From Marsupella aquatica (lineage: Eukaryota; Plantae; Marchantiophyta), in contig OZ316896.1 of assembly GCA_973895155.1 (NCBI GenBank), positions 12,442,549 through 12,506,548 of the forward strand: a stretch of DNA of 64,000 nt. Direction: 5' to 3'. Below the pieces are notes generated by a model. That model searched no databases. It had not been told where the DNA came from and saw only the letters and a program-made list of their open reading frames with translations. Numbering within the stretch: the first letter of the stretch is position 1; the number at the start of each line of letters is the position of its first letter. Of the stretch, positions 7,426-45,297 are shown in pieces. Both the position numbers and the translations under genes were made by a program.

Positions 7426-10400
7426 TCAATCCGCCACCTCAACACTTGGATCGTATACAGGTTGCCGAACAAATTGACCTCGCACACGTGGCCTCTGCTC
7501 TGCAAGTCTTTTTCGACTCTGATATCGCACCTGCAAAAGGAAATTAATGCCACTTGTTAGAGGAGGCAGTCAGAGGAGGCACAACTTGATGTGAACCGAC
7601 GTAACCTGTAAAGAAACTAGCCCACTCAAATTGAAACATAGCAATCGGGCTGACCTTCTTTTCAAAACATCGATCCTTCCTCTTTTGCCTGAACTTGTTA
7701 AGGGCAGCTTCTCTTCGATTGAACCGACTTTGCTCGTGATTATTGACAGCACAATGAGGAGGTCCAGCAGAAGCGTTTCCGTGGATAACAGCACCGTCGG
7801 CCACATTCTCTGCAGGATTGACGGCTGCACTACTGTGTCCATGTTGGTTGTACATATTATTACTGCCTGACCCACTACCATTGACACTTCCATTGCCATT
7901 GCCGGTACTTCCATACCCATTACTACTCCCACTCTGCCAAGTGTTTCCATCTGCCATGTTTGATGAACCACACCCGGGAGCTCCAGATGCCTGGTTTATC
8001 ACAACCTGGTCATCTTGTTGAGATTGCGCAGAAGGTTGACCAAGACGGGTATGGGCCTGCTGTTGTTGATGGTGTGACGAATGATGGAGACCCTGCTGTT
8101 GTTGTTGTTGTTGTTGTTGGTGGTGATGATGTGACGAATGATGAGCAGTGTGTGAACCGGGGTCATGACCATGAGGATGATAAAACACTTGCCCTCGGTC
8201 GGACAAGTGCGTACCTGCGGTGGCCCATGGAGGTGCACCAGAGTAATAAACTTGATGCATCGCCTGTCCATGTCCATATCCCGTGGGCACGCTCTCGTAA
8301 ATCATTCCCCGAGGAGGGAGGGGATTAGAGATAGGACGACCTTGGCCGGACATAGGGGAGACTGAGACAGCCTCATCCTTTACTTGCTGAGAGTAACTTT
8401 CAGGAATGGAAGAGCCGACCCTAGAAGACCCCAAATCTTGACCTTTTCCCTTGTGGGATGCTCTCGGATGAATTGCCTGAGGGTTAGAAGGCCCCTCTCC
8501 GCTACCTTTTGAAGACCCTGCTCGGTCCATGGGCATCGAGAAGTACGCTTGCCCATTACTGCCAGACCCGAGTTGATCAGTCGCCGGAGAAAGCGAATGT
8601 GTCCCATACGCAGCTCCAGCAGGATACCCAGAGAGCGAGAGAGGGGTGCCGCCCGGTATTTGCTGTATCGTTGTACCGTTCGTGCTATACCTGGAATGAA
8701 GAAAACGGATGGTCAGCAACCTTCCAGAATCTGATAATTCTTTGCTCAAGTTGTGCAATCAAATGCAAACTTTTGGAACCATTCTAACAATTGATATCGT
8801 GTGCCGGATGAAGAAAACAGCTTCGAAAGATCTAATAATATGAAGCGCACCAAACAGGCACCTCAATCTGATCAGGACGAATGATCCGCTGGCCAATTAC
8901 ACGAAACAGTACCTCGAAAACGCAGAGCCACCGGAATGCCGGAGAACCCGTTTCTCGTTGCCGTCATCGTCACCGGCAGCACGCGGTCGTTTCAACGATA
9001 GTTCCAGCAGCGGAGGGGAATTCGAGCTTGTCACACACTTGTCGTTCGCAGGACTGTTACTTGCTCCTCTGTCCGAACCTTCCGCCCCTTCACCGCTCTC
9101 GACTCCGTCATCAACATCCTCGTTGTTTTGAAAAGTAATCCCACCGATTAAGTCGATCGCTTCTCCTGCATCGGAATTGCTCCTCTTGTTATCGCTGTTG
9201 CCACTTCTTAAAGGCGAGTCGTCTTGTCTAGCTTCGGCAGCGGCTTGATTGTCGACTTTGGGGGATTGCTCCATGTCCAGAGAAGAGGACCTTCGAGTGG
9301 CCATCTCCAGGTCCTGACCCATTTGATTATCTGTACATGAGACAGAGTACTAAGAGTGGGCACAAAGAAGGAACAGGCCGGCACTAACGAAATTGAGCAG
9401 AACCATCGTAGATGAAGTACGAATATCAAAGTCGATTATCGGAGCATCACAACCCAATGGAGTATACTTGACTAATTGCGAAGGTCAGGCCAGGAACCCT
9501 TTCCAACCTCGAAACCAACCCAGTGACACAGAATCAGATGAATCAACCTGGTACGAGAAAGATGGCGGCCAAGTAAAGGATCAGTAGATAAGGACTTACC
9601 AGACTCCTTTTGCAAAGAGGTAGCCTGACTCTCCTTGACGTCAGGTTTATCTCTCTTTTGCTTATGAAAACCGTGAACAACAGCCTGTACAACGCACGAT
9701 CAAGTTACGGTGCTTGTTAGATGCCCGTCGAGCTTCATATGCCACTAGACATACTAGATCAGAAAATCGCATGCAAGACGACCCGGTGCATATTCTCATC
9801 GCCAGATTCTTCCAGAATCGAGTTAAGCGTCTGCACAAGTAAAATCCACCTATCTCACTGAGAGCTCACGTGAGCTGTGCTAAGTGCATGGAGACCTTTC
9901 CCAAAATTTCTAATGGATGAGCAGAAGGCAGATAACAGAATCAGACACTGAAACTCACTTGTGTGCCACTGCCATTATCACTCCCACCCCGCACGTTCAA
10001 ACCACTGCTGTTATCGTCGCTGCCATCGTTACTGCCAGTGTTGTTGCCCGATCCGACTTTGCTCTTCTGGCGCCCAACTTTCACCCCGTTACCACTGCCA
10101 CTTCCTCCACTACCGCTGCCGCATGACTGAACAGACACAACAGCACAATCGTGGAATAAGAGATCCATCAACCACCTTCTTGTCCGTAATCATTACTCAC
10201 TACGAGTCTACGCCACTGACAATTAAAGTTTCGCTAGACAGATAGAGATCATGGATACGTAAATGTTCAAAGGTACAACCCCTTGTGGCAGCAAGAGGGA
10301 TACTTACGCTTTGGCACCTCCACACATGCTGCCACAAATTTTTGAGCTCGTTCTTCCGGACAGGCTTCACGAGGAAATCGGCGGCTCCCTTCGATAGACA

Positions 10401-12094
10401 TCTAAACACTATGTCGAGAGAGTCGTGGGAGGACATCACTGCAAGCAATGGATCCCGGTCAATACCTTCAACAGCTGCGTTGCAAGTATTATACCAAGAC
10501 ACAAGCGCGCAAGAATCACGCCAACCTCCACATTCAATACTCACGAACCCCTCAGGATTGTAGGAGCTACTCCACAAGATCGCTGCGACTACCTAGCGAG
10601 GGATCTATGAACTCAAGCCAACCCAAAACCTCCATTTCTACAGAGAACCAGAGCATGCAGGGTGGCCAGGAGCTTACTAATGACGGGGATCCTTTTCGCC
10701 GATTCGTTACTCATAATCTTGGATAGTAAGCCGACACCAGAAAGGCAAGGCATCACGACGTCAGTTAAGACCAAATCGAAGTGGTTGTTGGGATCCTCCA
10801 ACATCTCCCAAGCTTGCATCCCATTTGCAACTGCTGAAACTGCAATAATTCCACCAAATCGAGAACACATCAGAACTTGGACATCACAGGATTGCATTCC
10901 ACTTGCAACTAATCGAGTGCAATTCCAGATACGTCAGTTCCTGAGAAACCAGATCCACTCTGTTTCAACCCAGAACACATGGAGTCAGCGTACGGGCATC
11001 GGACGTGGACCAAGGGACCATCTCGTAATATATCGCCGGACAAGCAATCAGCAAACAGCTATCACACCGCGTTGCAAACAGAAATGCAAGACAGCCCGCT
11101 AGGCAAACGGTAAAAACTGGTCTAACAGTACCAAGGTGAGGACCTCGCTACCAAGAAACGAAAGTGGCACTTCGCATGGACACATGCCTCAAAATTAAAA
11201 GAGGAACCTTCCCGCTGAAAGACCCTTCACTTCGGAAGCTGGATACCAACCACATGAGAACAGGCCACAATGCTAAGCAAGTACGAAGCAAAGCCTGTAA
11301 CCCAGGAACCGGCTGTCTGACTTCGGGTCCTGCCAGGGCACCGAGACAGTTTGGAGCAAAACGGGGACAAGGGTAAACAGAGGACCGGAACAGTATCTCT
11401 GAAGGCTCCAGTAAGGAAACCAAGACATACCTTCATAACTGCAGTTGCGGAGAAGCGCGCAAACGACTTGCCTCGTGGAATCATCGTCTTCTGCTAGCAA
11501 CACCTTGATATTACTCCGTGGGAGGAAGCTCTCCCAGCCAACAGGGGAAACGGGGCTCTGGGCTGGTGGCTGGGTGTTATCTTGCTTTGGCTCCTTTCGC
11601 TGCTGAGGTAACTGTTGTGCTGCAGAGGTTTGTTGCTTATGTTGTTGCTGCTGATCCTGCTGTTGCTGCTTACGGCTAGGCTCTGACAGCACTTCAACGA
11701 CGGGCCCATCGCCCTCAACCATATCGTCCTCCGGCTCCTCGTCTCCGTATCCCTCGGACGAAAGTGCTTCGACCTTCCTACTCTCTTTAGACGGTAACCT
11801 CGCCTCACGTTGCATGCCATGAACGGAAGCATCGTGCTTAACCGATCCCGGGCGACCTTTCAAGGCATCCTTAAAACCTGTCGTTAGATCTGCAGTTCCT
11901 CTGTTATCTTTCTCAGAATCCACCACATCTCGTCCCTGCTCTCCCAATTCTATCTCCATGGCCTCCTTCCAGTGCCCGCCCTTGAAATGGTCCCGTTGCG
12001 GAGGCCCCACATCGAAGTCAACTTGGAACCTCTTTTCGGTAGGAGCTTTCAGTGGCCTGGACTCGGTCTCGCCCTCGCTCAAATCTGCAGTCAT
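7426..12094 (-). CDS. PRR: Circadian-clock pseudo-response regulator, PRR7/PRR3-like (receiver domain, EAR-like motif, CCT domain), ~920-940 aa
   Basis: Phase-consistent GT-AG exons: 12094-11431, 10839-10678, 10438-10308, 10126-9959, (9830-9783 optional, weak donor), 9684-9600, 9330-8913, 8690-7655, 7530-7426. Receiver: [26 protein letters not shown]...[14 protein letters not shown]...[21 protein letters not shown]. Also LELSLKR and [13 protein letters not shown]: [43 protein letters not shown]. Confidence 0.95.
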
Positions 12095-13338
12095 CAGAAA
12101 ACTGAATGGACGCCTCTACGGGAAGTAGAAAACTACCAGCTGATACTTAGCTGAACAGGAAGAAAAGTTGCAGCTACCCTGTCGAACCCTGTCCAACACT
12201 AAACCGATATCGAGGAACTCCTCTTGAACTGCGTCGCGTTTCTCGGGACATCCGCTACCGCTCTGATCCCGCCCAATCTCAGTCCCAGACCAACCCAGAA
12301 CACTTCGAAGTGGAGGCGTCAAGCTTTACGAACCTTCTAACCTCCCGTGGCGGATAATTTCGTCCCGAGTGCAGATGAAGCAGGGGCTCGACGGTAGTCC
12401 TAGAGGGTACCCGTCGATTTCAATGGTGTTCGTGTTCACGACTGCTCACTACCCCCAACAAACTCGAAGAAGAACCGTTCAGACTTTGGCCTTGAAATAA
12501 CCTGCAGGAGCGACACGCCTACGATGGGCGGAGAGTCGCTGAAGTCCGAGACGAACGACAAAACTACAATGACCTCCACACCAGACTGAGCTCGGTCAAA
12601 TCAATCGACTTCCACGGCAGAACTCATCAACCACACAACTCGCATGCATTCGCCGTAGAACTTGTCACAGCCAACAAAGCTTGTACAACCCTTTGCAAGC
12701 CAAATCCCTCCAACCGAAACACCAAATCCTTCTCCACTAGTCAATCAACCGACAACAGTCACGGAAACCGCCGATTCCACCACACGCCGGACGAGGCGAA
12801 CACTCGAAGTCGATCCAAACCCGCGAAAAGAACGAAACCAAGACGATCAAGAAGGCGCCGAGCCCGGCTGCAACATCAAGTTTCTTCGACAAATCTTCCG
12901 CGTACAATCGTCAACACTCTAGCTACCTCTACCACCACTACTCCACCACCGTCAAGACGAGTTCGGCTCACGACAACAAGTTTCGTCAACACATCTTCCG
13001 AATACAATCAATCAAAGACCGGCGCATGAAGCATTCCTTCGCTTGAACAGTCACACCGGCGTCGTTGCCTCAGAGAGATGGAGAGGGAGGAATCGAGGAG
13101 AAGAGAGCAGAGGAAAATCGAAGCGGAACCGTCAATGTCGTGAGGCAAGCAACCTCTCGTGCGGCGTCAGGGTGTGAATCATCGATGTTGAATATGTGTA
13201 AATCGTCTACTCCAAGGGCAGAGGTTGCGGGAGGGCCTGAGGCGCCAGGGAGGCAGGGGACTAGGGAAGTCACGGACGGGAGCGAGCCACGGAGGCTTGG
13301 CGGAAATAGATCGGCCGTGGACCTAATCCAGCGCTCTC

Positions 13339-13579
13339 ATTGGTCCAGAAGCGTTCAACTCTGGTAAAATCTGCCACTGGCAAACCTTAACAGACGCCAT
13401 GACTGGCCGGACCCCTAATATCATTCTACTTTCCCCCTCGCCAAATCGATTTCGTGGCTCTCAGCACCCGGCACACCTCAGTCTTGCCTCCCAGCCCTCC
13501 GTTCGGAGCCACGCCAGCATTTCCTACCATATGCTGCCTTCTCATTGGCCCGAAGCTCACGTACCAGCTAAAGATTTTT
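13339..13579 (-). promoter_or_regulatory. Putative PRR proximal promoter with a CCA1/LHY-type site and CCAAT boxes
   Basis: AAAAATCT on the minus strand at 13572-13579, AAAATCT at 13366-13372, and CCAAT (minus) at ~13339 and ~13544. These lie upstream of a CT-rich leader (~13070-13115 on minus). The TSS is not known. Confidence 0.4.
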
Positions 13580-15253
13580 CCGTGGCCGATCCGATTTCGC
13601 CCATTTCCCGCTTTTTGTTACCGTAACAGAGACTTAGGGTTTGGCTTACCGTCTGGTGAAGGTTTCCGTCATACTTGTTTATTTCCATAATATCCGGTCT
13701 GACATGACATAATTCCTCCTCGTAATCCACATTTGTACTGGCAGAAACAAGAACGGCAGCATTCATTTTCAGCTCTTGTGTTCGATCATATCTGGAGTAT
13801 CCACTATTTGTATGGTGACCACTAATCATCATCCCCACTTCGTCAGGCACTCCTCGGGCTGCCATGCGAGTTACTAGAGTGGATCTTCCACTGCGGTTTG
13901 AAAACAGGTCACGAGGCAATCCAACCACACTCAACATATTACTTAGCCACTTTCCAGCCCGTTCCTGTGCAACCTTATGCTTACGATTGTACCACACGTT
14001 GCTCACAGGGTTAGTAATGGGCCCCAAGAAAAGGTCTGGTTTTGTGTCACCCTCCAGAGGAGGCAAATGTCGCAAATACTGTTTCAAACAAATGATAAAA
14101 TCAATCTCATAACTGTAAAACGATTTACGGAATTGTTCTTCATTGTAGCGATCAAGGGAGTACGAATTGTTCTTGCTCTCTCTTTCTTCAAAACTGCAAA
14201 CAAACTGAAATCCAGTCAGATATCAAACAAGCTGAAATCCAGCAAGAAAATGATAAACAAAAACGTCCTATAGAGCCTACGACACTTACTGCACATACTC
14301 TCGTCCCTGCTTGTCACTACACAGCCGAACATCGTGTCTCATCAGGTTGTACAACTCCGAGCCACCTCGAATCCCCAGCCGAACCAAGACAAAGAAGGCA
14401 AGACGCTTCTGGCATCCATGGGGGCTGGTTATTTGATGATCTATATCTGCTAGAACTGCGGTCTCCATTTCTTCCGTAATTATTTCAGCCTGTGAACAAT
14501 AGGATATAGACATCAGAAACAAACATAAAGAACTCAACAATATAGAAACGGATCAAGAAACCTGGCAATAAACTAGAAACAAATAAGAGAACTTACCTTC
14601 TTTCGTTTCTTGTTCACTCCCTCCCGTGCTGATTTCTTGACTGCAGCTTTCAGTACCATTCGAGTCTTTGCAAAAACGGGATGAGAGTTGATATTGAACC
14701 CTTTCTCGATCAGATTACCTTGTCCTCTGACAGACCTGAGATCACTTGCACGTCTAATGATACGGTTGAATGCATTCATCATGTTCATTAGTGTTGAGGA
14801 AGGATACGTGTTACCATCAACCTTGACAGCCCTGGAGAAAAGGTTACTGAGGAGCAAATCGAGCATGTGTAACGGTAAGTCTCCCAAGAAAATTGACGTA
14901 TCCCAATTCAGGGCAGCACGTAGCGAGTCAGCATGTTTCAATGCCCATCGATCATTCTGGTCCGATGGGAGTTTCTCCTCCCCTCTCCCAGCATCAGCTA
15001 GCATTTGATCTGGAACCGATCGTAAACCAGGTATGCTCAGCGAAAGAGAGCTCACCTCCGAGCTTGCTTCACCAAGTGACTCTGTTGAAACCACAGACAC
15101 AGGGACATCATAAACCATTTCCATGTCAATCTCCACGCCCATAACATCCTCGAACTCGTTAAAGAATAGCGCATCTACATTATCTTCGTCCGCACTCAGT
15201 CGATCCAAACTCGCATCCTCATTCACATCATTCACTGCTTCACTTCCTGCCAT
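13557..15253 (-). CDS. Tyrosine recombinase, Crypton/DUF3504-type (N-terminal part and catalytic domain)
   Basis: Exons 15253-14597, 14489-14290 and 14193-13716 are phase-consistent and stop-free (~444 aa). The frame then reads through the 96-bp repeat to a stop at 13557. Motifs: KVDGNTYPSSTL; RLGIRGGSELYNL (catalytic R); EERESKNN (K); VWY; FSNRSGRST (HxxR position, with H replaced by R); ISGHH (H); GYSRY (Y nucleophile). Confidence 0.85.
13622..13717. repeat. 96-bp direct repeat, copy A (putative element 3' terminus)
   Basis: CGTAACAGAG...CATAATTCCT; differs from 15935-16030 at 2 of 96 positions. Confidence 0.95.
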
Positions 15254-15934
15254 AACATGAATTAGACCCGCAATTATGATTGAATATGATGAAACAGGAT
15301 CAAAAGCTTCCAGCAGAGTCATTCCATTGATGGAGTTCGAATGATTCTGAAACAATGAAACACAATCTTAAATATAAACGTAATGCCAGGAAAGGATATC
15401 GCCATCGAGCTTCAATCTTCTTTGATCCATTTGAAATCATCTCCGCAAGTTGATGATTGTCCATCACAAACAGAACCCCGCCAATCAAAGCAAGGACGCC
15501 TCGGCAGCAGCTTGCACTCCCGCTCGCGCCATCGCCAGCAGCTCGTGCCATCCACAAAAACACAAACATCGAGCACACAGAGCACAGTATCGAATGATAG
15601 AAAGCAGCAGCGTGTCGCCGCCTCCTCAAAATACCTAAACTGAAAACCTATGAAACGTTGAATGAGCAGATTGAGCCCGTAGCGCTTCGCTTTGCCCCTC
15701 GACTATTTTGATTCTCGCCCAGTTCTCTCATTGGTGCACCGGCTATTGGGAGTCGCCAAATCCTAACCCTCCGTTACGTCGGGTAATGACGGTTCAGATC
15801 ACCCGTTACCGGGCGTAACCTGCGCTCCCAGGTTCTTCCCGAAGGTTTCCCGGCTCCCGCCGGTCAACCTTCTGTCAGAACTTGGTCGCCCGTTACACCC
15901 TGGTAACGGCTGACTAAACCCTCATTACCCTATA

Positions 15935-16030
15935 CGTAACAGAGGCTTAGGGTTTGGCTTATCGTCTGGTGAAGGTTTCCGTCATACTTGTTTATTTCCA
16001 TAATATCCGGTCTGACATGACATAATTCCT
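15935..16030. repeat. 96-bp direct repeat, copy B
   Basis: 94/96 identical to 13622-13717; continues into ~21-bp CATAAT-periodic repeats up to ~16100. Confidence 0.95.
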
Positions 16031-16585
16031 TACTGAGTTTCATAATTGACTTACGGAATGTCATAATGGGCCTATGGAATGTAATAATCCGCTTACGGAA
16101 ATAGTACGTTCTTGATGCAAATGGCATATTCCGTCCATCCTTGACAGGTGTCCATCCAATTTGAATGTTCCATCCACACAGTCTGAGTTCAATTTAATAA
16201 CTTGATTTTGGTAAGATATTTTGTCGTATGAACTCCATGGATACAGCGGTGGACAAGTACAACACTTCCCAAATATGGGACTTCACAATTTCTCTCCATC
16301 ACATTTGCTTCCGATGAGTAGCGAGCAGCGTTGCAACTCACTGTCCTATGCATATTTTTGTTTGAGGACTCAAAAATACACTCCATTACAATACAGTAGT
16401 TGTATTACTCAGGTCGAAAGACCATCACAGCGTTCAGTAATCTCTGAAATTTGACATTTTATTGAAATCAAAGGGATCATTAGATCATGAATCCTGTGAT
16501 AAAATTGACGGAAAGAAACAATTGATCATCCAGGAAACTCATGGATTGAATCTTGCTATGCAAAAACTGAATCTCCTGAATCACA

Positions 16586-17231
16586 TCAAGTCTCCTTCTT
16601 CGGATCTTTATTCTCCTTATCATCCTTGACAATAAAGGTGATAGTGCAGTTCTCAAATCTATTCCCTGAGAGACTATTGCCAACAGAAATACTAGAACTA
16701 CTAGTGCCTCCACTGAAAGTTCGAGCTGAAAATTCTGGATCGTTCTTGGCAATCCCTGATATCCAGTCGATCTCATCAAATTTCTTGTGCCACTCAGCCA
16801 TCATCCGCTCCTGGTCTATTGTGTCAACAGGTTCAACTGTTTCAAGTGCTTCCTGTAACAGCAAACCACAACAAGGTATGAATACAAGAGCAGAATAAAT
16901 GTAAGGTGTGGATACAAGAGCAGAACAAACACTGAAACAAACTACGAACCTGCTTGCCTTTCTTTGTCTGACTCATTCCTCATCCACTTTACTGCTGCTT
17001 GATTCCTGTCACCAACAACAAGAGTATTAAGCCTCCAAACCGGACAAAAACCAGATAACAAATACAACACAAATATCTAAACATAAGAGACCAGCATACC
17101 TCACATCGTGGGCTGATAACTGAAAGCTGCAGATTTGGTTTCGAGCTGATCTTTTCAATCAGAGGTTTTAACTGTCCCGAGTTTCCAACAACCTTCTCCT
17201 CCACAAATTGCTTGGACACTTCTATCAAGGC
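16586..17231 (-). pseudogene. Displaced C-terminal exons, probably from the Crypton-like YR gene
   Basis: Exon-like blocks 17231-17100 (ALIEVSKQFVEEKV...PRCE|GT), 17005-16950 (needs a 1-nt frameshift) and 16855-16586 (EALETVEP...GNRFENCTITFIVKDD...*). The F-x-N-C-T-I-x-F tail resembles the C-termini of DUF3504/Crypton proteins as I recall them. Confidence 0.55.
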
Positions 17232-19377
17232 GAGGAAACTAAATATACACGCTGTTGAGTCAATTCGTACCCTTACGCCACGCCGTCGGGCCCTCCAGGT
17301 TTCCTGTTGGCGACCCTGTATATTGAGCTGCAAACTCTGCGGCCGCTAAAGTAGTGTCCGTTGGCGGCCTCGCCCAGAAGTGCTAGCGTACTAATAATAA
17401 CTAGGGTTCATTTTGCAGGGGGAGGATTCGGCCGCTAAAATATAGTCAGGGTTTAATAATAACCATGCTAGACAACAGACGTGGCGGACCGAAACCAACA
17501 AAGACAGGTGGATGCAATAACCTATCATTATTATTAGGTCATCACTGTAAGCCATGGCCTCTTGTTTGGGTGGAACGGCCAAAGAAGATCATTCATTAAT
17601 AAAGCTATCCGATAATCCAAAAGGCACCACTGCGGGCTGGGCAGATATTTCCATGGATATGATGACTACAACCAATTAATTAAAGAAAAGCAGACTACCC
17701 TAGTCGGAGCATCTATGGTATTGTGAAATGGTTTAGCTCATGGATAGAAAGGACATTTGCCTGCTGGATCCAGCCTGCCAGCTTGTCCTCGTGAGGGCTA
17801 GGGCCTGGGGGATTCTAAATGATGTTTTGCTTTGAGCAGCTCCTGTAAAAGAAAACATTGCTGGTAACAAAAGAGTGCAACGGTTTCTGATGCACAAGTG
17901 TGAAGTTTTTGAGGGCAAAAAAAGTACCATTTGGAGCCTTTGTTCCCTTTGAACCAGGGGAAAACCTCACCTGAGCAACCGCACACCTGGTTGGGCAATG
18001 TGGGTGGGGGGAACCCAACTCTATTACAAAGCACCACAAGGCCAGGCCAGGCCAGAGCCAGGAAGCCACCCACCATATTGTGAGTCCCTAGAATAGTTAG
18101 GCACTTGATTCTGCAACCACGGTCTCCAATTTAAATGTAGTTAACGAGGTCAGTAACTTACCTGTAGATAATGATAGGCACTCTGTAACAACTGGAAAAC
18201 CTGGAAACGTTTTGGCAAACTCTTATCTAGAAAAATATATAACTGAGGGTCTTCCAGACAATACTTTGCCAAAAGCTTACAGGAGACAACAAGGTTCCAA
18301 GCAATTCCAATGGATCTAGCATTTCCTTCCCCCTCTTTCCTTCCCTTCATTAGGTTTGCTTTGTCTTTGGGATCATGTCTCCCTGTTTGGGTTTTTTTTT
18401 GCCCTTGGGCATTGTGTTATAGAGCACTTTCTGAGCTCCCAGAAACCAACCATTTATGTGCATGAAAGATACTGAAAATGGTACATCCAGGTTACATTGG
18501 TCCATAGCAGTGTTCACTCAAATGTTGTGATCTATCAGAGCTTTTTCTCCCACTAAAAAAACTGCTCAAAGGCGCTTTTTATTCTTCTCGTATCCTATTA
18601 ATTTAATAGCACTCTACATGTTGTTAATAAGAAAGGATTTTTTTCCTGGGGTTAAGTGGATGTGAGGCCGAGCAGAATTTTTCCCCATCTTTTCATTCGA
18701 CAACACATTATTTTTATTCGCAGCGGAGATTTTGACGTCCGGGAGGATTGTTTCCTTCGTTTCCATTGGGCAATATCGTGAATCTCGACTATCGTTTGTT
18801 CTTTACACAGTCCCGATCCAATCGGGAATCAATGGGGCCCGCCAAGATATTCTGAACTGATCGACTCAAGTCGTCGGACCCTGCGGACTCAGCTCAGCCA
18901 AGCGAATCCAGTACCGAAGGGCCCTCATCCTTTTACACTTACGTCTACAGAGAAATTTACAATTATAATCGCCACGTGTCCTTGCTTTCACGGCTCCCGG
19001 CCCGGACCTGACGGCTGCCGTCGGGAACTCGCCACATCTACGACTTTGAACTTTGCAGCTTGGTGAGGGAACATAATGATGTAGTTCTAATAAACATATA
19101 TAAACCTAGTTGTATATTGTATATCATTGTGTATCACGACAAAATATACAGGGAGCACCCATACGGACCGCAAGGCATGTTATTCTTGTTTTTCGGTGGT
19201 GGGGGGTGTGGGGAAAGGGTGGTGGTGATGGTGCTGCTCAAAAGAAGGCATTTGTTTAGCGAGTTGGATTCACTCTTAGAACATTTGATTTCACATTTAA
19301 AATAACGATTCTTTAAAAACATATTAATTGAGGAGAAGAATAAATATCTGTCTGACAAAGCAAGATGGGAATCTACG

Positions 19378-19516
19378 ACAAGGGCCTCTGGTCTAGCGTG
19401 AAGACTCTAGATGGCCACTGGGGCACAACTACATTCGGGGTGGGACCAAAGCTCATGCAAGGGCCTATGGTCTAGAGTGAAGTCTCTAGACCATGATTGT
19501 GGGGCACAGCTACATT
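19378..19516 (+). repeat. Tandem duplicate containing the GGTCTAGAG-N6-CTCTAGACC hairpin (also at 3253-3276 and 47026-47049)
   Basis: Two ~57-60-bp related units starting CAAGGGCCT(C/A)TGGTCTAG; the second has a perfect 9-bp stem. Confidence 0.7.
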
Positions 19517-21499
19517 AGCCTCCCAATTACAAAGATCCAAGGGTTTGGGTCCCATTGCTAGTATTTAACTTCCTTGTATGAAAAACATAAACCTCAAATT
19601 CTAGGGGCCAGGGTACCAACAAGGTGGTCATATCCAGAATCACTACGCCAACCTGATCAATGTAACATTCATGGCAACAATCTACAAAACAAGTTGGAGT
19701 CTCTACCCAAACTAGTTTGGGCCTTCCAAATATGATCAGAAACTAAGGCTTGAGTCGACAAAAACAGAGCCCAGATGGACCTCCACGTTTGGAAAAAGGC
19801 CCCCATGGATTTGGGCAACCCAGATTGACCTCAATGTTTTGTCAATTTAAACTACAATAGCACTATATACAGTCCTTACTGAAATGTGACTTGTAAGTGG
19901 GCAGGAACTAGCTAGAGCCTAATTATATTCTGTTAGTCACAACTGGTATTTTGTGCATTGCTGATGGTTGCAAGTTGCGGGGAAAAATACACATAGTGGA
20001 CCTCCAAACTAAACTTTATGTCTTGATCACCAAAAGAATGATTTTCTCTTCCAGCTGGCCTTTGGGCCCACAGGAAGTACCATTTAGTGTCAGAAATTCT
20101 TATAACATGGTTGGGACTCCTTATGACCCAAGAAAACCACTTTAAAATGCAATATGTTCTATTGTTGTTGGATGTCGTCGCCAAATGCTGTAGACTACGA
20201 CCGCAATGTCAAATGACCTGTTTGCCATGCGGCTGCAGCAGGATATGGAGCACCACACTTAAAACTTGTTATATGCTGACAATCAAATAAATTTATTTAC
20301 TATAATATACAATCCCGCCTTTTTGTGCTCATCGTCCGTTCACAAAATTCACTTTTGGAGGGAACTCATTATGACCATTGGATTTAAAACTTAAATTTTT
20401 CTGCCCATCAGATCTATGTAAGGAAGAATAAAGAATTGAATAAAGAGTTTGTCCTAGCCTGGGGCACGGATCCATGGGCTTCCACCCACACCTAGACTCA
20501 TTACAAACATCTAGAAAAAGGTCATTGGGAATTGAATTGACATGTGGCTATCATGGGTAGATGGGTCTGACAAGAAAATCTAAGTAGACCTCACATGATT
20601 GCCCCATTCACGTAAAGTAAGAAGTATAGACAACTACAATACAAATTAAGTTGTGAGTTCAAAAGGGATGATTTATAGGAAAGTGGAAAAAATTAAGTCT
20701 ACTAGGAGTAGTGAAAACATTGTTTTTTTCTAATCTCGATAAAGTACTTTTTCCAGGTTACATTAACATTCAATCCTATATTCTTTATTGCAATAACCTT
20801 ATTGACCAAAGACACAATGGCCCCAAGAATAAAATGGCCCCAACAACGAAATGGCCGGAGTGATAAATGATTGTAACAATAAAATGGTTATAAGGACAAA
20901 TGTGCAATGCAAGTTAGGGCAATGGGGTTTCTATATATGTCATATTTCAAATCACATTATAAAAAACTATCTCATCTCAAAGAGTTAGTGTAATCTACAA
21001 AAGTGGAAAAGGAAGGAACAAACCAATACCATCAATATATTTCAATGATTTTGACACCCTTGGATTGAGTGAAAGGGACCTATGGAAGTGAATACCATGG
21101 ATATTTTTGCTCTTAAAGTAGGTGTTTACAAAATACATGTGCTAGCTAACTACTTTCAAAAATTACATGTGCATAACATTGGTATCAGATTTGTTTTGTT
21201 TTTTGCTAAGGAGAAGAGAAATTTTCATTTTTCTGAGAGATCATTTATCTTTTGCTCCATGTTGATTCTTCTTCTCTTTCTTAATCATGTTGGAAAGGGA
21301 GGGGGGTGCCAAAGAGCCAGGATGGGAGACTGGAAGGAGAGAAAGGAACGACACAGAAGAGGAGATTGAAGAAAAAAGGGGAAAAATGTGAATTTATCTC
21401 CCTCCATATAGCTAAGGGCGACCACACTTGACCCTGTAACACCCCAGCCGCCCCCTGTTTTGCGTTCCCTCCCATGCTCTCACCCTTGCCACAACATTG

Positions 21500-22955
21500 C
21501 TTTCACAATAGCACCTTGGGACATACATTGCCTCAATATCTTTGCCTCAACTTGACAATTTTTCTCGCCTTGACATATTTTTCTCAGCTTGACATATTTT
21601 TATCTCCTTGAGATATTTTCCTCACCCCAATGTTCTTTTCAATCTCACATTGACATCTTTTTCTCACCTTTCCATCTTTCCTTTAGCTCTGCACCTTTTT
21701 TCTCCTCAACATCTTTTATCACCTCAGCAGTTTCTCATGCACCTTGATATATTTTCGCTTCCTGGCATCTCTACTCATCTCAGCATCATATTTTCATAAT
21801 TTTCACATTTTTTTTCTCTCATGTACATGATTTTCTCACCTTAAAATCATTTTCTCACCTTGACATTTTTTTCTCTCATTTAACATTTTTCTCACCTCAA
21901 CATCTTTTTCTCTCCTCGACATATTTTTCTCATCTCAGCATCTTTTTATCTCCTCGATATCTTTTCCTCACCTCAATGTTTTTTTCTCACCTCAACATCT
22001 TCTGGGCAACGCATGGGCATTGGGCTATTTGAATATATATATATATATATATATTGTGCCAAAATAATGAGACTTCACACCCATAAACTATGACAAATAT
22101 TTATATGGTTTTTCATCACAATTGTCTCACAAAATTTGACTCCCAAAGAAAGCCTTGGAAGCAAAGCAAAGAGGGGGAGAGGCAAGGAGAAAGGGGAGGG
22201 GGGGCACATGGATGAGAAAAGAGGGAGGGAGAGGCTTCATCTTGCCCCATCTGGTCGCAGGTAAGGGGTGGAAAAAGTGTCAAGTTTATTTTCTCACCTC
22301 AAAATCTATTGCTTTACTTTACATCTTTTTCTGCTCAAAATCTTTTTCTCTTCTTTGCACACGTTTCTCTCCTCAACATCTTTTGTTCACCTAGACATAT
22401 TTTCTCTCCTCAATTTTTTTCTCATCTCAACATCTATTTCTCTCCTCAATATCTTTTCTCTCCTGGACATATGTTTATCATTTGGACATCTTTTCTCTCT
22501 TTGACATCTTTTTCTCTCCTCTACTTCTTTTATCACCTCAACATCTTTTCCTCACCTCGACATTATTCTCACCTCGATATCTTTTCTCTCCTCAACATCT
22601 TTTCGCTCCTTGACATCTTTTATCGCCTCGACATCTTTTCTCTCCTTGACATCTTCTATCACCTCGACATCTTTTGCTCACCTCGACATCTTTTCTCTCC
22701 TGGACATCTTCTATCACCTCGACATCTTTTGCTCACCTCAACATCTTTTCTCTCCTCGACATCTTTTATCACCTCGACATCTTTTCTCTCCTCAACATCT
22801 TCTATCACCTCGACATCTTCTATCACCTCGACATCTTTTGCTCACCTCAACATCTTTTCTCTCCTCGACATCTTTTATCATCTCAACATCTTTTCTCTCC
22901 TCGACATCTTTGTTCACCTCGACATCTTTCGTGCAACGCATGGGCATTGGGCTAG
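21500..22955 (+). mobile_element. Non-autonomous Helitron with ~18-bp CT-rich minisatellite and two tandem 3' termini
   Basis: Ends in CGTGCAACGCATGGGCATTGGGCTAG|T (22930-22956), a plant Helitron-type subterminal hairpin followed by CTAG and T. A degenerate earlier terminus GCAACGCATGGGCATTGGGCTAT lies at 22006-22028. Internal arrays of (TC)ACCTCGACATCTTTT units. The 5' boundary is approximate. Confidence 0.75.
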
Positions 22956-34416: not shown

Positions 34417-37315
<2,899 letters not shown>

Positions 37316-38092
37316 AGCTGCTCGTGGGGACGAGGACAACGAGAACTACCACAACGACGACGACGATGGTGCTCGCAGCAGAGAAGCGAAATCCTATTCC
37401 CTCCGTCACAAGAATGGATGTGGAAAACCTGGGGCTGAATTTGACAAGAAGATATTTGGTGCAAGAGGAGAGGGGAGACGGGAGGGAATCGTGTCGGGAC
37501 GATGGAGTGTAGGGTAGCGTGATCAGGAGAGGTGGCGGAAGAAAAGGTATACCGTCGGATCGATATATTCGCCCGTTTTTCCACACGTCACGGTTCTGGT
37601 CGCCTTTACGGTACGACTGCTTGGCCTTGAAACTTCTGTCTCGTCGGTTTTCTTCCTTCTCATAAATGTACAAAAACACCATCGAATGAGAAAAGTGAGA
37701 CGGGACAAAAGAACCAGGTCTTTTCGTTTAGGGCCAAGGTGGCGAATGTCACCTTGGATGTACGAGATTATGCCAAGAATATCCTGTATCTATTTTTTAA
37801 TTTATTTTCAAACAATGTCACCATGCCATTATTTTATTTTATTTTATTTTATTTTTATTATTTTTATTTTTTCATAGAAAAGCAGGGCGAACACCCAAAC
37901 AGCCAAACACCCGTCTGAGTCCTGTATCTACTTTTGCCAAAGGTAATTTATGGCCCTTCGATCTCCCCAGATTTTCCTAGATTTGAGTATGATTGGCAGA
38001 TTCTGGCTAATGGTGCTGGTTAATAGGGCGTGTCAAAGCAGGGGACCTCACTTACATCCAAAGATATAAAGTGCTTTTAGATATAGGATAAT

Positions 38093-40493
38093 TATAAATG
38101 CTAAATAGTATATACACACTTTTTATATACAAAGGGACCAATCAGAGTACAAATGAACAAACAAAAGAGGGCCCAGGTGAACAAAACCAATCGAAAAAGA
38201 AGTGAACAAAAGGGAACCACTAAACACCAAGAAAGAAGAACTAAAAGTAAGAAATGAGCAATAGGGAACCCCTAAAAACCAAGAAAGAGAGACTAAAACT
38301 AACCCAAGCGGACCGAGGTCCTCATCATTCCTAGCGAATGTGGCAAAAAGCTACTGGTCCACATCAAGGGTCAAAGCTAGATCGGCAAGTGGGATTGGAA
38401 CATCCTCTAGGGGAGCTAGCCGTTGCGGAGGCACAATAGCACCCACTATAAGAGATCGACGATAGATGGCCCGAGCTTGAGCACACTGCAAGGTGACTGA
38501 AATGCGTTGGCGAAAGTGCGTGGTCAAAATAGAAAGCGGGGGTCCGGTGGGACCCATGCGGCCATGAACATCCCGGGCAGCTTGCCGAAGAAGCCCATCA
38601 AACTAGGGATGAAGACGCCCAAATAGCTCCAGAGCAAGGGGGAGGAAGCTGTCGAATGAAGCTCGTGCAACATATTTGGCCTCCTTCGTTGTTGCCGCAC
38701 GTGACGCTGCTGCCCTTGCCGTAGTTGCCGCTGTCCCAATGATGTCTTGGCGCAATGGGTTTGCCACCACTACATCTGCCAATGTACGTTGACCCTCACG
38801 GACCATGGTAAGATCCACCCGTAACCGCTGTGATGGAGGACCAGGTAACTCGAGTACCACCTCCCGCCGCACGCATACCAAAGAGCCAGAGAGAACCTGA
38901 GCAGTCGCATCTCGCACAGCGTCGTGAACAATAATGGTTTCACCTCCCAAACTGCACCGAAGAAGATGGACACCTGTGGCATCACAAGGCTTCCCACAAG
39001 TGCAAGAAGGGGGTAAACCTGCAAGAAGTGGGTGGGGCAGCCCCATACGAAGACGCATGGCTGTGGAGAACTCCGTTGAAGACATCCGCAAATGAGGAAT
39101 GACTGGATTGGCCTGAAGCCATCCACCTGCGCCCTTCCCTCCGAAAGAAAGAATCCGAGCTTGGTCCGTGTCAGGTGCCTCGGAGAGGATGCTGGAAAGG
39201 GTGAAAGTGTGCATACGCCCATCGAGGTCTGCCTGAAGACGAACGGGATCCAAGGATAAAAACTCCTGAAAATAAGGTAACGCGGCGCGAACGGGATCTG
39301 GTAATGAGGACCACGCTGCGCGCAAATGAACCTGAAACGGGAGGGAACCCTCCTCTACCTCCATGAGAGATGAAAGTAAAAAAGGGCGATCCTCAATAAG
39401 AAAATGATCGGCCAACAATGAGAAGGCGGCCGCCCACGCACCCAAAAAGGCCAAAGGTGCAAGGCTCTCAATGGAAGTAAGCCCAAAACCACCATGCGAA
39501 ATAGGAAGACTGAGTTGTCGATGAAGCCACGGAGATGAGAGCAACGTACCCGGCCCCAAAAGAGAGGCCAGGGTCTGATGAATGGAGACATCAAATGCTC
39601 GAAGGTGGAGACAAAGATCCTCGGTAGGGGGATGCGTCCTAGCCAGATAAGACGCACGATGGTGGATGCACCTCAACAACATCCCAAATGTTGCCTGAGA
39701 ATCTGCTAACTTAGGGAGCATAGGAGTAGAGGCTAAGGCAGCCTGTAGAGAGTCAGCGATGAAAGAGGAGCAAAAGGAGGCGGTACCGACTGGGGAGCCA
39801 AGGACCCGAAGACCATCGGCTGGACGTAAGAACCCTGGGGGAAGTGCAAGATCAGAGGGTAACCCAGCTGGACTCCATGCACGACTCTTCACAGGCTGAA
39901 CTCGTAAACCGAGGCCCATCAAATGGGTGGAAAGAGTGGCGAGGGCAGAAGTAACCGCGGCAGGAGGACCAATGATGTGGGTGTCATCTGAAAGGGAGGG
40001 GAAGATACACTGGGGGTGGGCCATGGCGGCTTCTCGTAAAGCTGTAAAATGGGCAATGGCAAAAAGAGGCCCACCCAAAGGGTCACCCTGACGAGTACCT
40101 TCTGCAGAGGAAAGAGTGGTATACACACCTGTAGAGGAGTGATGACTATAGAAGAGTGGGGCCTCGAGTCCATAAAAACAACGGACAAAGGGGATCAGGG
40201 ACTAGATGTCTAGATCTGCCGCCCTCAAAGCACGAAAAATGGCTGCCCGAGAAACCGTATTAAAAGCGTTAGAGACATCAACTTGGAGGACAACCCAATC
40301 AGGGTGGAGGTCCAAGGTAGCTCAAATACCCGCAATAACTGTCTCACAACCGCCAGGAACGCCAACTGCAAACTGATGTGGAGAGAGATGATCCGATAGT
40401 GCAGAGCGAAACTGCGAGGAAAGTGTGCGAGACACAAGCCGAAGAAAAACCTCCCCAATAGCAATTGGCAGAACACCCGGTGAAGACTTAGCC
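38093..40493 (-). mobile_element. 5'-truncated CRE-like non-LTR retrotransposon (RT, CCHC, restriction-like endonuclease)
   Basis: 12-bp TSD ATATAGGATAAT at 38081-38092 and 40494-40505. Motifs in one frame: PIAIGEVFLRL, QFAVG, DVSNAFN, GTRQGDPLG, SLSDD, LRVLGSPVG, LPISHGGFGL, CTCG...HLLRC, HDAVRD, RVDL...LADVVV, KEAKY, FLPLALELFG. Confidence 0.9.
38351..40493 (-). pseudogene. RT-RLE ORF of the CRE-like element, broken by three in-frame stops
   Basis: A single frame runs from ~40493 to the stop at 38351. It contains TGA at ~40322 and TAG at ~40202 and 38603; no frameshifts were seen. Confidence 0.85.
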
Positions 40494-42640
40494 ATATAGG
40501 ATAATGGAGGTCTGGTTTGGGGTACCAGGAAATGAATAAAACTTGGCCTGACTCCGGGAGGCTAGAACCCCACACCAGACCTCCTTCCTAGTACATAATA
40601 TCTGCACAGAAAAAGGTTAGCTCAGGCAACAGATTATGGGAATAGCAGGTGACTTCCCAACTGGTTACATGCTGGTAACCTACATTTGGTACAGAATTTA
40701 AGGTCAAAACAAAAATGTCAAAGGCTACCTACTGTACATATGTGCCTCATAAGGATGGTACATCCAAAAAGCCCCATCCATAAGACCTTGCTTAGTGTAG
40801 TGCTCTAACATGCCCTAATGGAACACAAAAAGATGACCATTTTTTGCACAAAGTGGCCCAGACTTTCCAGTGAGGTGAAATTTGGCATTCTTGGCCAGTA
40901 AAAGAAAGTTGATGAGAACCATGAGACAATGAAAAGTGGACTACTATCGTGTCTTTTACCAAAAACATGGCACACACCTTGTATTCAAAAATCCAAAAAA
41001 ATGGACCTTTCTGTGAAAAGTGGTTTTGGTTCAAAACAACCCTCTTGTATTCAAAAATCTATTAGACAACCGAGGCAGTGTGTTCAAATGTGAACCCTAG
41101 GCGTATAGCAAAGTTTTGTTTACAGGGCAATGCTGGATAAAATGCCCCCCAAAAAGTAGTAAGTGGACCCTGCCATCTTGTCTTCCCTTAGTGATTCTTA
41201 AATTCAATCATAGAGACAGGTCACTGGAAATATCTTAAATGTTTGTATCAACGTTGTGGTTTCATGGAGCAACCTGGGAAATGAAGCCCATATAATTGGG
41301 CTCATTGTATATCTGGACCAGCGCTTAAGATATTGTTTGAGGTTGTTTGAACAAAACCCATTTTATTTTCATTTATTTTGTTTTATTTTGTTATTTTTTT
41401 AAATTTAAAGTGCAAATCTGTGAAACCCCACAGAAAGGGAAGAGTCAGTTACAACATTTGAACCCAAGACTTAAACCCTAAACCCTAAAATACACAGCCA
41501 TGCCTCTCTGGGCTCATAAAGTGGTTTATTGACTAGAGCCAAACCCATTGTAAGAGAGGCACTAATGGGGACTGAACTGGAGAGCAATTGCTATGAAGTC
41601 CTAGAGTAAAACTCTGGTCAAGATCATCCAGGCAAGCTTTCAAACAATGATCTCCTTATCCAAAATATAGCTTTTTGCTAGGTCATAGTAATAGTAGTTC
41701 TGAATGTGGTGGGAAAGATCATGGCACCCAAACAATCACATGTATCATACATGGCTTGGCAATATAATCATGGTCTGGTCCCGGGTCTGGTCTTTAGATT
41801 TCAACAGGGGTTTCAAGTGTCCACTTGGTTAATGAATGTTCAAAATGTTGGCAAATACAGTACCAAGCGCAAGTATTGGAAGGACAGTCAGTAAAAAAAA
41901 AAAAAGCCCCCAATTTCACTGGAAGCACCAGATTTGTGTTCAATTATGGAACCCCAAACCCATTTTTTGTGTTGGTTGTAACCCCAGGTGGTATCTTCAT
42001 CCAAACCTCTGAACTTGGGAGCAATCCTAAAATATTTTTGGTATCAAAGTCACAATTTATTGTTCTATAGCCAATCTAACCACTACAACATGCAATCCTG
42101 ACATGAGAAGATTGTCTGTTTACAAAATAAAAAGAGAAGTAAATGATTTTATGCCATCACATTCTCTAGACAGTCTGACTCTCAAAGGACCACTAAGACC
42201 CTTTGAAGCTTTTGAGAATTATGCAAAACTTTTGCCCTTGGATATGATCGATTAACAGACGCAATCAAGCGTTGGTGTGACGGGTACCCCGTCACGGGAA
42301 GTCACACATAACTGGTTGCAAAGGCCGATACCTTGTTAATAGTCAATGTAAATAAGCCATTTTTTAATTTTTAGTTAATTCCGTCATTATAGGTTGATGA
42401 TGCCCCAGGTGACTTTATATTCTTTCTCTCATAATAGTTCTAAGATTTGCGGCGACCTAAGTGGGCAAATATTTTGGGACCTTGAAACTAGCCAGGACCA
42501 GCCCCATAGGACTTACCGTTTTGCTTCAAGAGCTATTGTTGAGACCCCCATTGCAAAGTCAGGAGAGGGGGGGGTTTTTTTTTTTAAATAAATCCCTCCT
42601 CAGGAGGGCGAGTCCCATTAGTGGCCGTCCGAGAGAAAGA

Positions 42641-43010
42641 GGGGCTGCCTCGCGAGCCCATAGGGCTGCGTGCCCGGGCGATTAATGGGGCTCCGCGAGC
42701 TGAAGGGGCTGCCTCGCGAGCCCATAGGGCTGCGTGCCCGGGCAATTAATGAGGCTCCGCGAGCTGAAGGAGCGCAAGCGAGCGGGGGGGGGGGAGTTAA
42801 AGGGCCTCCCGCGAGCTGGGAGGATCACGCGAGCGGGGGGGAGTTAAAGGGCCTCCCGCGAGCTGGGAGGATCACACGAGCGGGGGGGAGTTAAAGGGCC
42901 TCCCGCGAGCTGGGAGGATCACGCGAGCGGGGGGGAGTTAAAGGGCCTCCCGCGAGCTGGGAGGATCACGCGAGCGGGGGGGAGTTGAAGGGCCTCCCGC
43001 GAGCCGGGAG
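42641..43010. repeat. GC-rich tandem arrays: 2 x 65 bp followed by 5 x ~47 bp
   Basis: GGGGCTGCCTCGCGAGCCCATAGGG... occurs twice, and GCGAGCGGGGGGGAGTTAAAGGGCCTCCCGCGAGCTGGGAGGATCAC occurs about five times. Confidence 0.9.
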
Positions 43011-43440
43011 GAATGGCCGCGCGCCCTGCATAGGGCCGCGCGCAGGAGGACGCAAGGGTAAGGCCCGAGAAATGGGCCGGGGCGCATGGCGAAGGCGCCA
43101 GGAGTTTTTTCGGTTCTATTTTTTTTTTTTTTCCTTCCTTTTTCTTTCCCTCTTCCTTTTGCACGACCCTCTCATTGCCGAAAGCAAAAACGGGGTTCTT
43201 CTCTCTCTTGCCGGAAGCTCTCTCCAGATTCTAATTATTTTTGAAGCTCTCTCTTTCATGGTGGATTAGTGGGGCTTGCTGGCGTCATTCTTCCAGGCAT
43301 TAGTGGCGGCCGCACGGAGTAGTGACGGGAAATTGAGAGAATTTAAGTGATCGGGCTACGGGGGCTGTTTCGGGCCAGGGAATTGACATTGCCACGGGTG
43401 ACGGGATTGGTGATTGAGAAATTGATTTCGGGATGCATGG

Positions 43441-45297
43441 ATGCTAGATCAACCAGAGTTTAGTGCGTCACGCATTCGGAGATACAAGGCTGCTTACCGT
43501 GACTACGTGGAGACTCGGATTACACGGGAAAGGGAAGAGAGAGAAGTTATGATGAGCACGGGATTGGCAGCGGGTTCCTCACCGGTGGGTAGGAAGATTT
43601 TTCGTCGAATTTATCCCAAGACCTCCACCAAGGTGATGGAGGATTGTCGGAACATTTTCCAAGCCACCGGGCTTACAGAATTCATGAAGGTGGAGATTAC
43701 CATCCCTTCAGGGAAGAGCTGGGACATTGAGGCCGGGATGGAGTTCCGAACGGAGGGAATCTACTTTGAATGTCTCAAACGTGTAGTGCCCCATGTGGAG
43801 TTGGCTAAGCTATTGTTTCTTGAGAATCAGAAATTCTCATTCACACCTCGGAATATCAGGGGAGAACTCACGTTGAAAATGGTGGCCACTTGGGTGACCA
43901 ATCCTACCTCCACCACCGCCATCCCTCTTTCTGCTGTCAAGGATGTTGAGTATAAGGGCTTCCTGGCCAAGGTGCATCAACGGGTTCTTGGCAACGTGCA
44001 ATCCGGAGTGCTGAATGAGGAGCATTTCGTGGTAGCTATGGACATCAAGAACTACCCAGCCCATGTGTACGGATGGTGGTGCTACGGATTGAAGAAGCTA
44101 TTGGCCGCTGAGCCCGGGAGTGTGAAACCAGGTGGGGCTGTACATTTGATGGGGTCATTTGTATTGGCCAGGGCAGAAGGGTTGATTGGTTCTCCGGGGC
44201 ATGAAGACACGGGATCATCTCTCACCACGGAGATCCGGAGTATTGCCACTACCGTTTTAGGGAAGCTCACGGAGGAATCATTGTCTGCTGGTGGGGAGGA
44301 TAATAGAGAAGAAGAGAACCAGGAGGATGATTGCACATTGGAGTGGCTTGAATCACTCGTGGGAGATCCGAAACAGCCTCTGGAATACAACATTCCGGAT
44401 GTTTACTTGGCAGAGCTACGGGATTTCAGAGAGGGAGTCCACGAGGGACTCAAGCTAGTCCACGCATTGAGGGAGTCTCTCAAGCACGCCACAGTCAAAG
44501 TAGAGACGTTAGAGCAGAGCATCCTGTCACTGAAGGAGGTGATCAAGACCAAGGAGCAGACCATTCATGAGAAGGTCAGGCACATCAATGCAGCTCACGT
44601 AGAGATCACCAACTTGAAGGGAGCTTTGTCCACCAAGGCCAAGGAAGCAGAAGAAGTAGGAGCGTTGAGGCAAGCATTGGCCAAAGAGAAGCAAAATTCT
44701 GGAGAAGTGATGGAGTGGAGGAACCAGGTGGGAGCACTACGGAGTCAGGTGGCAGCCTTTGAGACACGAGCGAAGAGAAGTGAGGCCCTGAGTCTAGGGA
44801 AACGGAAGAGTCCCGGCACACCTGGCTCCACACTTTCCCCGGATGTGATCTCCCAAGCTATCGAGATGGTGGTGAAGGAGGTTAGTGGGAAGTATGGACC
44901 CTTGTTGGATGGAGCCAAGAAGAGTCAGGAGAAGAGTAAGAGCTTGGAGAAGAAGCTCCGGGAGGTACGGAAATCGTTACGGGAGGCTCAGGTCAGTACG
45001 GGGATGCCACCCAGGTCTGTCACCCCCGGGACTCCCATGGCCACGGGGCAAGTTCTACCGTTGGAGTTGCGGTCCGGAGAAGAGGCTACCCTCTGGAAGG
45101 ACACAATTGGTGAGGGGTACATCAAGGCGTGGCAGGCCTTGGCTGCTTTGAGGAAGCGCGGGAGCAGCAGCACTAAGAGTACTCCGTCGAAGAAGAAGAA
45201 AAGTACGGTGGCACTCACTCCCGTGAGTGATGAGGAGGAGGACCACTCACGGGGCACAAGTCCGGGCACCGAGAGCGAAGAAGAAGAGGAGGATTAG
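43441..45297 (+). CDS. Intact 618-aa intronless ORF of unknown function (globular N-half, long coiled coil, basic NLS-like and acidic tail); probable retroelement accessory protein
   Basis: Uninterrupted 1857-nt ORF. Heptad-rich segment ~aa 325-450 and ~490-515, SKKKKS near the end, and a terminal ESEEEEED. No RT, integrase, protease or CCHC motif recognised. Confidence 0.7.
   Translation: MLDQPEFSASRIRRYKAAYRDYVETRITREREEREVMMSTGLAAGSSPVGRKIFRRIYPKTSTKVMEDCRNIFQATGLTEFMKVEITIPSGKSWDIEAGMEFRTEGIYFECLKRVVPHVELAKLLFLENQKFSFTPRNIRGELTLKMVATWVTNPTSTTAIPLSAVKDVEYKGFLAKVHQRVLGNVQSGVLNEEHFVVAMDIKNYPAHVYGWWCYGLKKLLAAEPGSVKPGGAVHLMGSFVLARAEGLIGSPGHEDTGSSLTTEIRSIATTVLGKLTEESLSAGGEDNREEENQEDDCTLEWLESLVGDPKQPLEYNIPDVYLAELRDFREGVHEGLKLVHALRESLKHATVKVETLEQSILSLKEVIKTKEQTIHEKVRHINAAHVEITNLKGALSTKAKEAEEVGALRQALAKEKQNSGEVMEWRNQVGALRSQVAAFETRAKRSEALSLGKRKSPGTPGSTLSPDVISQAIEMVVKEVSGKYGPLLDGAKKSQEKSKSLEKKLREVRKSLREAQVSTGMPPRSVTPGTPMATGQVLPLELRSGEEATLWKDTIGEGYIKAWQALAALRKRGSSSTKSTPSKKKKSTVALTPVSDEEEDHSRGTSPGTESEEEEED

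Follow-up and report, generated by a model that had tools for sequence, protein, structure and literature searches.

Organization of the locus

The window, meaning the whole 64,000-nt stretch of Marsupella aquatica DNA that was analysed, contains an insertion with a tyrosine recombinase (YR) gene about 1.5 kb upstream of the first coding frame of a pseudo-response regulator clock gene (Table 1). This regulator matches that of Calypogeia fissa at 83%, the best of 93 matches, followed by those of Riccia and Marchantia, and the host DNA is therefore that of a liverwort. On the plus strand, host DNA is followed by a 96-nt copy of the element end (13622-13717), one letter, positions 13719-15935, the joined element ends, positions 15936-17231, and host DNA again. 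Neither Rfam on 12000-18000 nor a tRNA scan of the window returned any match, and the 96-nt repeat therefore does not correspond to any known RNA gene target.

Several other features were recorded in the window. Motifs at 16214 and 17071, inside the element, and at 13572 and 17643, around the insertion, are putatively of the evening-element type. Pfam identifies a fragment of a DDE_Tnp_4 (Harbinger-type) transposase at 50629-51297 (plus strand) and the propeptide domain I29 of a papain-family cysteine protease at 36755-37345 (minus strand), and open frames of 532 and 623 aa with no Pfam family at cut-off lie at 38606-40201 (minus) and 43426-45294 (plus). Arrays of 18-19-nt and 47-64-nt repeats occupy 21522-22926 and 42617-43017. 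At 18348-18681, 19350-19683 and 20018-21000 lie unclassified high-copy elements, for which every run shows numerous loose ends.

Table 1. Coordinates of the insertion, the recombinase gene and the neighbouring host gene in the window
Feature	Positions	Strand	Evidence
Host neighbour (part): pseudo-response regulator clock gene	7544..12115	-	Response_reg and CCT matches
Complete insertion, made up of the 96-nt end copy and the circularly permuted element of ~3.5 kb (13719-17231, 3,513 nt)	13622..17231	-	Empty site, joints
Foreign 53-codon read-through tail, outside the natural protein	13557..13718	-	Homology stop, repeat D9
96-nt second copy of the element 3' end, 98% identical to 15935-16030	13622..13717		Repeat search, contigs
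YR exon 3, 5' part (K293, R386-x-x-R389, H412, Y421), broken after codon 444	13719..14193	-	P0001 alignment, contig joints
YR exon 2 (catalytic Arg-I, R260)	14290..14489	-	Spliced frame, P0001 alignment, family alignment
YR exon 1 (aa 1-219; acidic N-terminus, helical domain)	14597..15253	-	Spliced frame, P0001 alignment
Three further inverted GTTAC..GTAAY sites (spacers 5, 5, 6), inside the 5' end	15773..15907		Pattern count
Joined ends: ATTAC, 7-bp core CCTATAC, GTAAC (inverted half-sites)	15924..15940		Window sequence; loose ends in X1, X3, X4, X5
Predicted last YR exon with natural stop	16586..16852	-	41% identity over 71 aa to the P0001/P0002 C-terminus; also P0053
Predicted small exon, 56 nt, in-frame stop in the window copy; X3/X4 version 7 nt longer	16950..17005	-	Contigs
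Displaced continuation of YR exon 3	17100..17231	-	Relatives' alignments, 17231-13719 joint

The recombinase gene

The three in-phase, stop-free GT-AG exons of the original prediction were re-derived as a single open frame on the minus strand (15253-14597, 14489-14290 and 14193-13557). This frame holds 497 codons, not the approximately 444 first proposed; the smaller figure describes the natural part of the protein, aa 1-444, after which similarity to relatives ends, and codons 445-497 (53 codons) are read-through into the 96-nt repeat and host DNA. The two predicted introns, of 107 and 96 nt, have GT..AG ends and are precisely what the alignment to P0001 from Calypogeia fissa omits (62% identity over 449 aa, far above chance). 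P0001 and a second Calypogeia protein, P0002, were the only matches in word-indexed protein searches. Among related contigs, four of the eight listed indels fall in the two introns (203 nt) and one in an exon, the latter in run X5 only.

The catalytic residues follow each other in the predicted order, as R260, K293, R386-x-x-R389 (N385-R386-S-G-R389), H412 and Y421. No reverse transcriptase (RT) or RNase H domain was found by Pfam in the stop-free frames of at least 130 aa of the window, in agreement with the earlier reading. That reading identified the spliced YR correctly and missed the element ends, the circular permutation and the displacement of the 3' exons. The gene is incomplete at 15253-13557, and its 3' part sits upstream, at 17231-16586; 10 of 151 relatives align to this displaced part, and 7 of them begin exactly at 17231. 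The predicted product of the window copy keeps all catalytic residues and loses the last predicted helix and the tail.

Family assignment and predicted fold

No YR family was matched by Pfam in the window exons or in P0001 and P0002, which stay below the DUF3504 cut-off, so the YR assignment rests on relatives and fold. A profile search collected 762 relatives at an E value of 0.001 or better. Of 30 looked up, 12 carry organism names, all of them non-seed land plants (the liverworts, moss, lycophytes and ferns Calypogeia, Marchantia, Riccia, Ceratodon, Selaginella, Diphasiastrum and Adiantum), and the other 18 are environmental proteins. The UniRef label on a Marchantia relative already reads DUF3504-containing, and 14 of the 39 relatives scanned pass the Pfam DUF3504 model, one of these being a named plant protein. 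A profile built from 12 Pfam-passing DUF3504 proteins, themselves found by similarity, detects the spliced protein at 196 bits. In a PDB sequence search, a five-row alignment gave no match, and the family profile (109 rows) found QRICH1 (6.5e-12) and an integrase (0.0016). The predicted model of P0001, which stands in for the window protein at 62% identity, has a core pLDDT above 90 and matches Cre at E 3e-7 and TM 0.65 on the target. The YR fold originally proposed is thus recovered through the DUF3504 profile and the Cre match of this model, not through Pfam, and the element is predicted to encode a tyrosine recombinase with a Cre-like fold.

A quick unrooted tree was built from 61 of 152 candidates, kept if they overlapped aa 230-430 of the window protein by at least 120 aa. 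It separates a group of 49 sequences, in which all named plants fall, from the 12 DUF3504 rows without a name (SH-aLRT 99).

Some relatives depart from this plan. P0106 is fused to an RT domain (one of the 39 scanned) and P0014 to PPR repeats, and both may be gene-model chimeras. P0027 and P0157, from Marchantia polymorpha (MPTK1_5g04240) and M. paleacea, form one 90% cluster across two species and have degenerate catalytic motifs; they are likely a domesticated host gene, and a literature search on the Marchantia gene identifiers found no paper. P0057, P0062, P0069 and P0076 (Diphasiastrum, Selaginella and two others) form a well-supported group without the catalytic C-terminal part, which likely represents a second domestication, parallel to that of QRICH1/ZMYM in animals.

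The residue at the His-II position

The His-II position of the window protein is occupied by R386, which leaves the R-H-R-Y tetrad incomplete, with R260, R389, H412 and Y421 in place. For this change the original prediction had offered two options, a lineage signature and a single inactivating substitution. In the 49-row plant group the position holds K in 35 rows, R in 6, other residues in 5 and a gap in 3, and in the 12 typical DUF3504 rows it holds H in 10 and T in 2. Since K or R is found in 41 of the 49 plant rows, the change reads as a lineage signature, and a single inactivating lesion was rejected on the same count.

In the available text on Cre, K and R at His-II are among five inactive substitutions, and type IB topoisomerases (TopIB) have a lysine at this position, oriented away from the scissile phosphate (PMC2943603). 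Since the plant lineage is mobile despite carrying the residues that inactivate Cre, its active site is likely arranged differently. Recombinase activity is argued here from this mobility. The incomplete tetrad weakens strict membership in the Cryptons, not the conclusion that the element works like one.

The normal element and its other copies

Other copies were followed in short-read contigs of runs X1, X3, X4 and X5, none of which spans the locus among the pieces listed. In all four runs, position 17231 is joined to 13719, with three letters in between where visible, and single contigs cross this uncut joint in X3 and X5. Behind 15935, loose flanks appear in all four runs (at least 3, 3, 4 and 2 contigs); before 15934, they appear in three of the four. 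From these joints and ends, the normal unit measures about 3,516 nt, ends at 15934/15935 and contains the YR gene only. Normal copies lack long terminal inverted or direct repeats, and, as is expected of a Crypton, no RT or RNase H was found by Pfam in the 3.5-kb unit. The end overlap appears to be 2 bp (AC; 15934-15935), as read from few, partly consensus flanks; most flanks are the consensus of 2-4 contigs, some from a more diverged subfamily, so that overlap and target preference are weakly defined.

These joints bear on an element that would always integrate through a site within its own recombinase gene and use gene splitting as a switch, as is known from some phage and archaeal integrases. 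The split leaves every catalytic residue on the 5' part, and an uncut form exists, as such a switch would have it. However, the depth of the uncut joint is about that of the whole element (171 against ~177 in X3; 570 against ~450-500 in X4), new flanks in X3 and X4 lie at 15934/15935 and none at 13719/17231, and the break at codon 444 comes with filler and target loss and without half-sites. By joint depth and flank positions a programmed split was rejected, and the reading is considered extremely improbable.

An empty site, in which 13624 is joined to 17230 with 19 other letters, is present in X3 and X4, and this empty form is presumably ancestral. The X1 element contigs differ from the window at three listed positions and two gaps, so copies within the X1 genome are almost identical, and the copies in organism B differ from the window by a few percent. 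Of the 17 changed core codons, 10 are synonymous against 28% expected (p 0.008; best-supported 39 of 133 rows, one X1-only row dropped), which, like the placing of the indels, speaks for constraint on the gene. Not all copies are intact, as 4 nt of an exon are deleted in the X5 version and the small exon is 7 nt short in the window and X1. The depth of the element relative to the flank is about 1.6x in X1, 3x in X3 and 5x in X4, figures that are hints and not copy numbers. No related locus was confirmed in metagenome or viral contigs. Several dispersed copies and empty sites are what is expected of a mobile Crypton, and a recently multiplied, recently mobile DNA transposon is the best explanation of the insertion.

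Pieces corresponding to 13873-14102, 14667-14797 and 15808-15935 also occur in X1, X3 and X4, about 85-88% identical in the gene and near-identical at the 5' end. Their sequences point to a related, older subfamily that these genomes also contain.

The dispersed copies, together with the host flanks, also decide between a transposon and a domesticated host gene, a DIRS/Ngaro fragment or fungal or animal contamination. Degenerate, probably domesticated relatives are known in Marchantia and lycophytes and one relative has an RT domain, but the empty site, the several flanks and the RT-free 3.5-kb unit speak against all three. The RT-RNase H and the inverted terminal or split direct repeats of DIRS, Ngaro and VIPER elements were looked for and not found, and the dispersed copies with defined ends and retained catalytic residues do not fit the single-copy host gene that had been considered as an alternative. 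As for the contamination that the original prediction had allowed for, the contigs run on into liverwort DNA at either side, and land plants are the source of all 12 named relatives. In X1, contigs that extend into the element are identical to the window in both flanks, which argues against a foreign source. Together these explanations are given hardly any weight. The proposed plant Crypton lineage is upheld instead by a DUF3504-related YR with a predicted Cre-like fold, an RT-free unit, copies with ends, an empty site, liverwort flanks and non-seed-plant relatives, and the element is assigned to a Crypton-type plant transposon family with high confidence.

Circular permutation and the insertion junctions

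Relative to the normal unit, the window copy is full-length and permuted, with its two ends joined. The joined ends at 15924-15940 have, by their sequence, the apparent shape of a YR site, and the three further inverted sites, located within 170 nt, are likely recombinase binding sites. In total, four inverted sites lie within 210 nt, against a shuffled mean of 0.008 (none of 2000 shuffles reaches 4) and two in the other 63,790 nt; pattern and region were picked after being seen, so this shuffle test is post hoc. At the insertion junctions 19 nt of the target are lost, the overlaps are 3 and 2 nt, and 3 nt are missing at the inner break. The 96-nt copy begins at the true element end, with the 3-nt overlap with the host, beside a host GTTAC. 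As an LTR or a target duplication this repeat was rejected, being an element end that is missing from the empty site and is peculiar to the window copy. The 96-nt copies differ in two places, one of which, within 13625-13634, agrees with the letters after the junction of the empty site and hints at a longer imperfect pairing during repair.

The X1 contigs show no difference from the window in either flank, and their breaks, at 13662, 13719, 16001 and 17231, are those that a genome with both cut and uncut forms would be expected to give; contigs across 13718 or across the internal end junction are not among the X1 pieces listed. The permuted structure is very probably real. A full-length copy with an end junction, three letters short at one inner break, would be the product of a circle that was once opened. 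The window holds the end-to-end junction and the permuted copy, and a free circle was not seen in the X1, X3, X4 and X5 contigs.

The same arrangement could derive from a chromosomal head-to-tail array, formed through recombination of sister copies at their ends or through rolling synthesis, with the window showing an array trimmed by deletions or one unit collapsed in the assembly; the family would be the same and a free circle would not be needed. In X1, the uncut joint (depth 20.5, flank-like) occurs alongside the junctions seen in the window, and a single longer array would account for depths and branch points just as well as two loci would. The rows listed for X1 include no flank before 15934, and its three flanks behind 15935 share the X3 consensus and may be older shared copies. 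Deletions, however, would have to cut two units at positions matching to within 3 nt, and a collapsed array would still require the end-to-end junction, the same 96-nt filler and the 19-nt target loss; X3, X4 and X5 moreover have dispersed copies with several flanks. An array is regarded as unlikely, and the source was fairly likely a free circle and not a chromosomal tandem.

Proposed mechanism

In the proposed mechanism, the recombinase would bind GTTAC/GTAAC half-sites and join the element ends across the 7-bp core into a circle, which would then integrate at new sites with an overlap of only about 2 bp (AC). For the window event, the circle would have been opened inside the gene after codon 444, with the loss of 3 nt, and then used by DNA repair to patch a break that lay upstream of the clock gene. 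This capture would have cost 19 nt of the target, used overlaps of 2-3 nt and left 96 nt of filler copied from the element end. Target loss, small overlaps and filler copied from the donor resemble end-joining repair, as at T-DNA-type junctions. Since the filler has the true end as its starting point and a host GTTAC next to it, an aborted recombinase step may have begun it; that the recombinase itself initiated the window event is conceivable, if somewhat doubtful. Overall, the insertion is probably a copy of a recently multiplied liverwort DNA transposon of about 3.5 kb that encodes only a DUF3504-related YR, and its permuted form in the window is likely a captured broken circle.

Comparison with known systems

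The element behaves as a Crypton does, and CryptonA/DUF3504 is its closest match by comparison with the descriptions of the named groups; the element lacks two strict features, the histidine at His-II and a score above the Pfam cut-off. As in animal CryptonA/DUF3504 elements, the YR is the sole protein, its catalytic domain is DUF3504-related, and RT and long terminal repeats are absent (PMC3212892). Unlike them, it has a land-plant host, K or R at His-II, a C-terminal extension and a score below the Pfam DUF3504 cut-off. Its ends are defined with inverted half-sites, whereas the available text of the same survey gives no defined ends for animal CryptonA and no terminal repeats in animal Cryptons (PMC3212892).

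Glomhoppers, a CryptonA subfamily of Glomeromycota, likewise have a DUF3504-type YR, introns and multiple copies, and their boundaries are not identified in the part of the source available (PMC13465315). CryptonF and CryptonS share with it a proposed circular intermediate and, as far as its ends can be read, a short direct overlap, but according to the available text their repeats measure 5-6 bp (TATGG in CryptonS) and they carry GCR1_C or peptidase domains, against about 2 bp and neither domain in the plant element (PMC3212892). Where reported, the end overlap of Cryptons is 4-6 bp.

Starships are also eukaryotic YR elements with TTAC microhomology, and their circle was demonstrated by junction reads. 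Joining of their ends sets the 3' end upstream of the YR promoter, and the window junction likewise lies about 680 nt before the ATG. They differ in their DUF3435 YR family, giant size, cargo and fungal hosts, as far as the accessible part of the preprint describes them (bioRxiv 10.64898/2026.09.21.753150). With Cre/loxP and TopIB, the element shares the predicted Cre-like fold, the presence of R/K/R/H/Y and inverted half-sites around a 5-7-bp core; it differs from Cre/loxP in the R of the window protein, and K of most of the lineage, at His-II and in half-sites of only 5-7 bp that are repeated (PMC2943603, available text).

Novelty and implications

Land-plant Cryptons are absent from Table 1 of Kojima and Jurka 2011 (PMC3212892). 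No description was found in the literature searched with Crypton or DUF3504 and moss, liverwort, fern or land plants; Repbase, one review and supplements may list families. The available parts of PMC11630846, PMC12130899, PMC10288648, PMC8226300 and PMC3537659 add no plant Crypton, and a literature search on the motif gave no results. Crypton transposition has, according to the accessible text of a 2026 review, no experimentally demonstrated mechanism (PMC13565253).

The element is a real new plant variant of Crypton-type elements, recently mobile and with defined ends, and its window copy is likely a captured circle. A fuller reading, offered tentatively, is that of an undescribed and still mobile non-seed-plant Crypton lineage with a TopIB-like K/R active site, GTTAC/GTAAC sites, a 7-bp core and 2-bp target homology, whose circle is fossilised in the window copy. 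The insertion is also polymorphic upstream of a clock gene, filled in the window and empty in X3 and X4. With the element, Cryptons extend to land plants, and the K/R at His-II points to a YR whose active site can accommodate a residue that inactivates Cre. The ends, candidate binding sites, empty site, near-identical copies, permuted copy and transformable plant models make the circle model testable. The element also offers a candidate plant-native integrase, which, if the fuller reading is true, would be ready, with its defined ends, for a first Crypton transposition assay.
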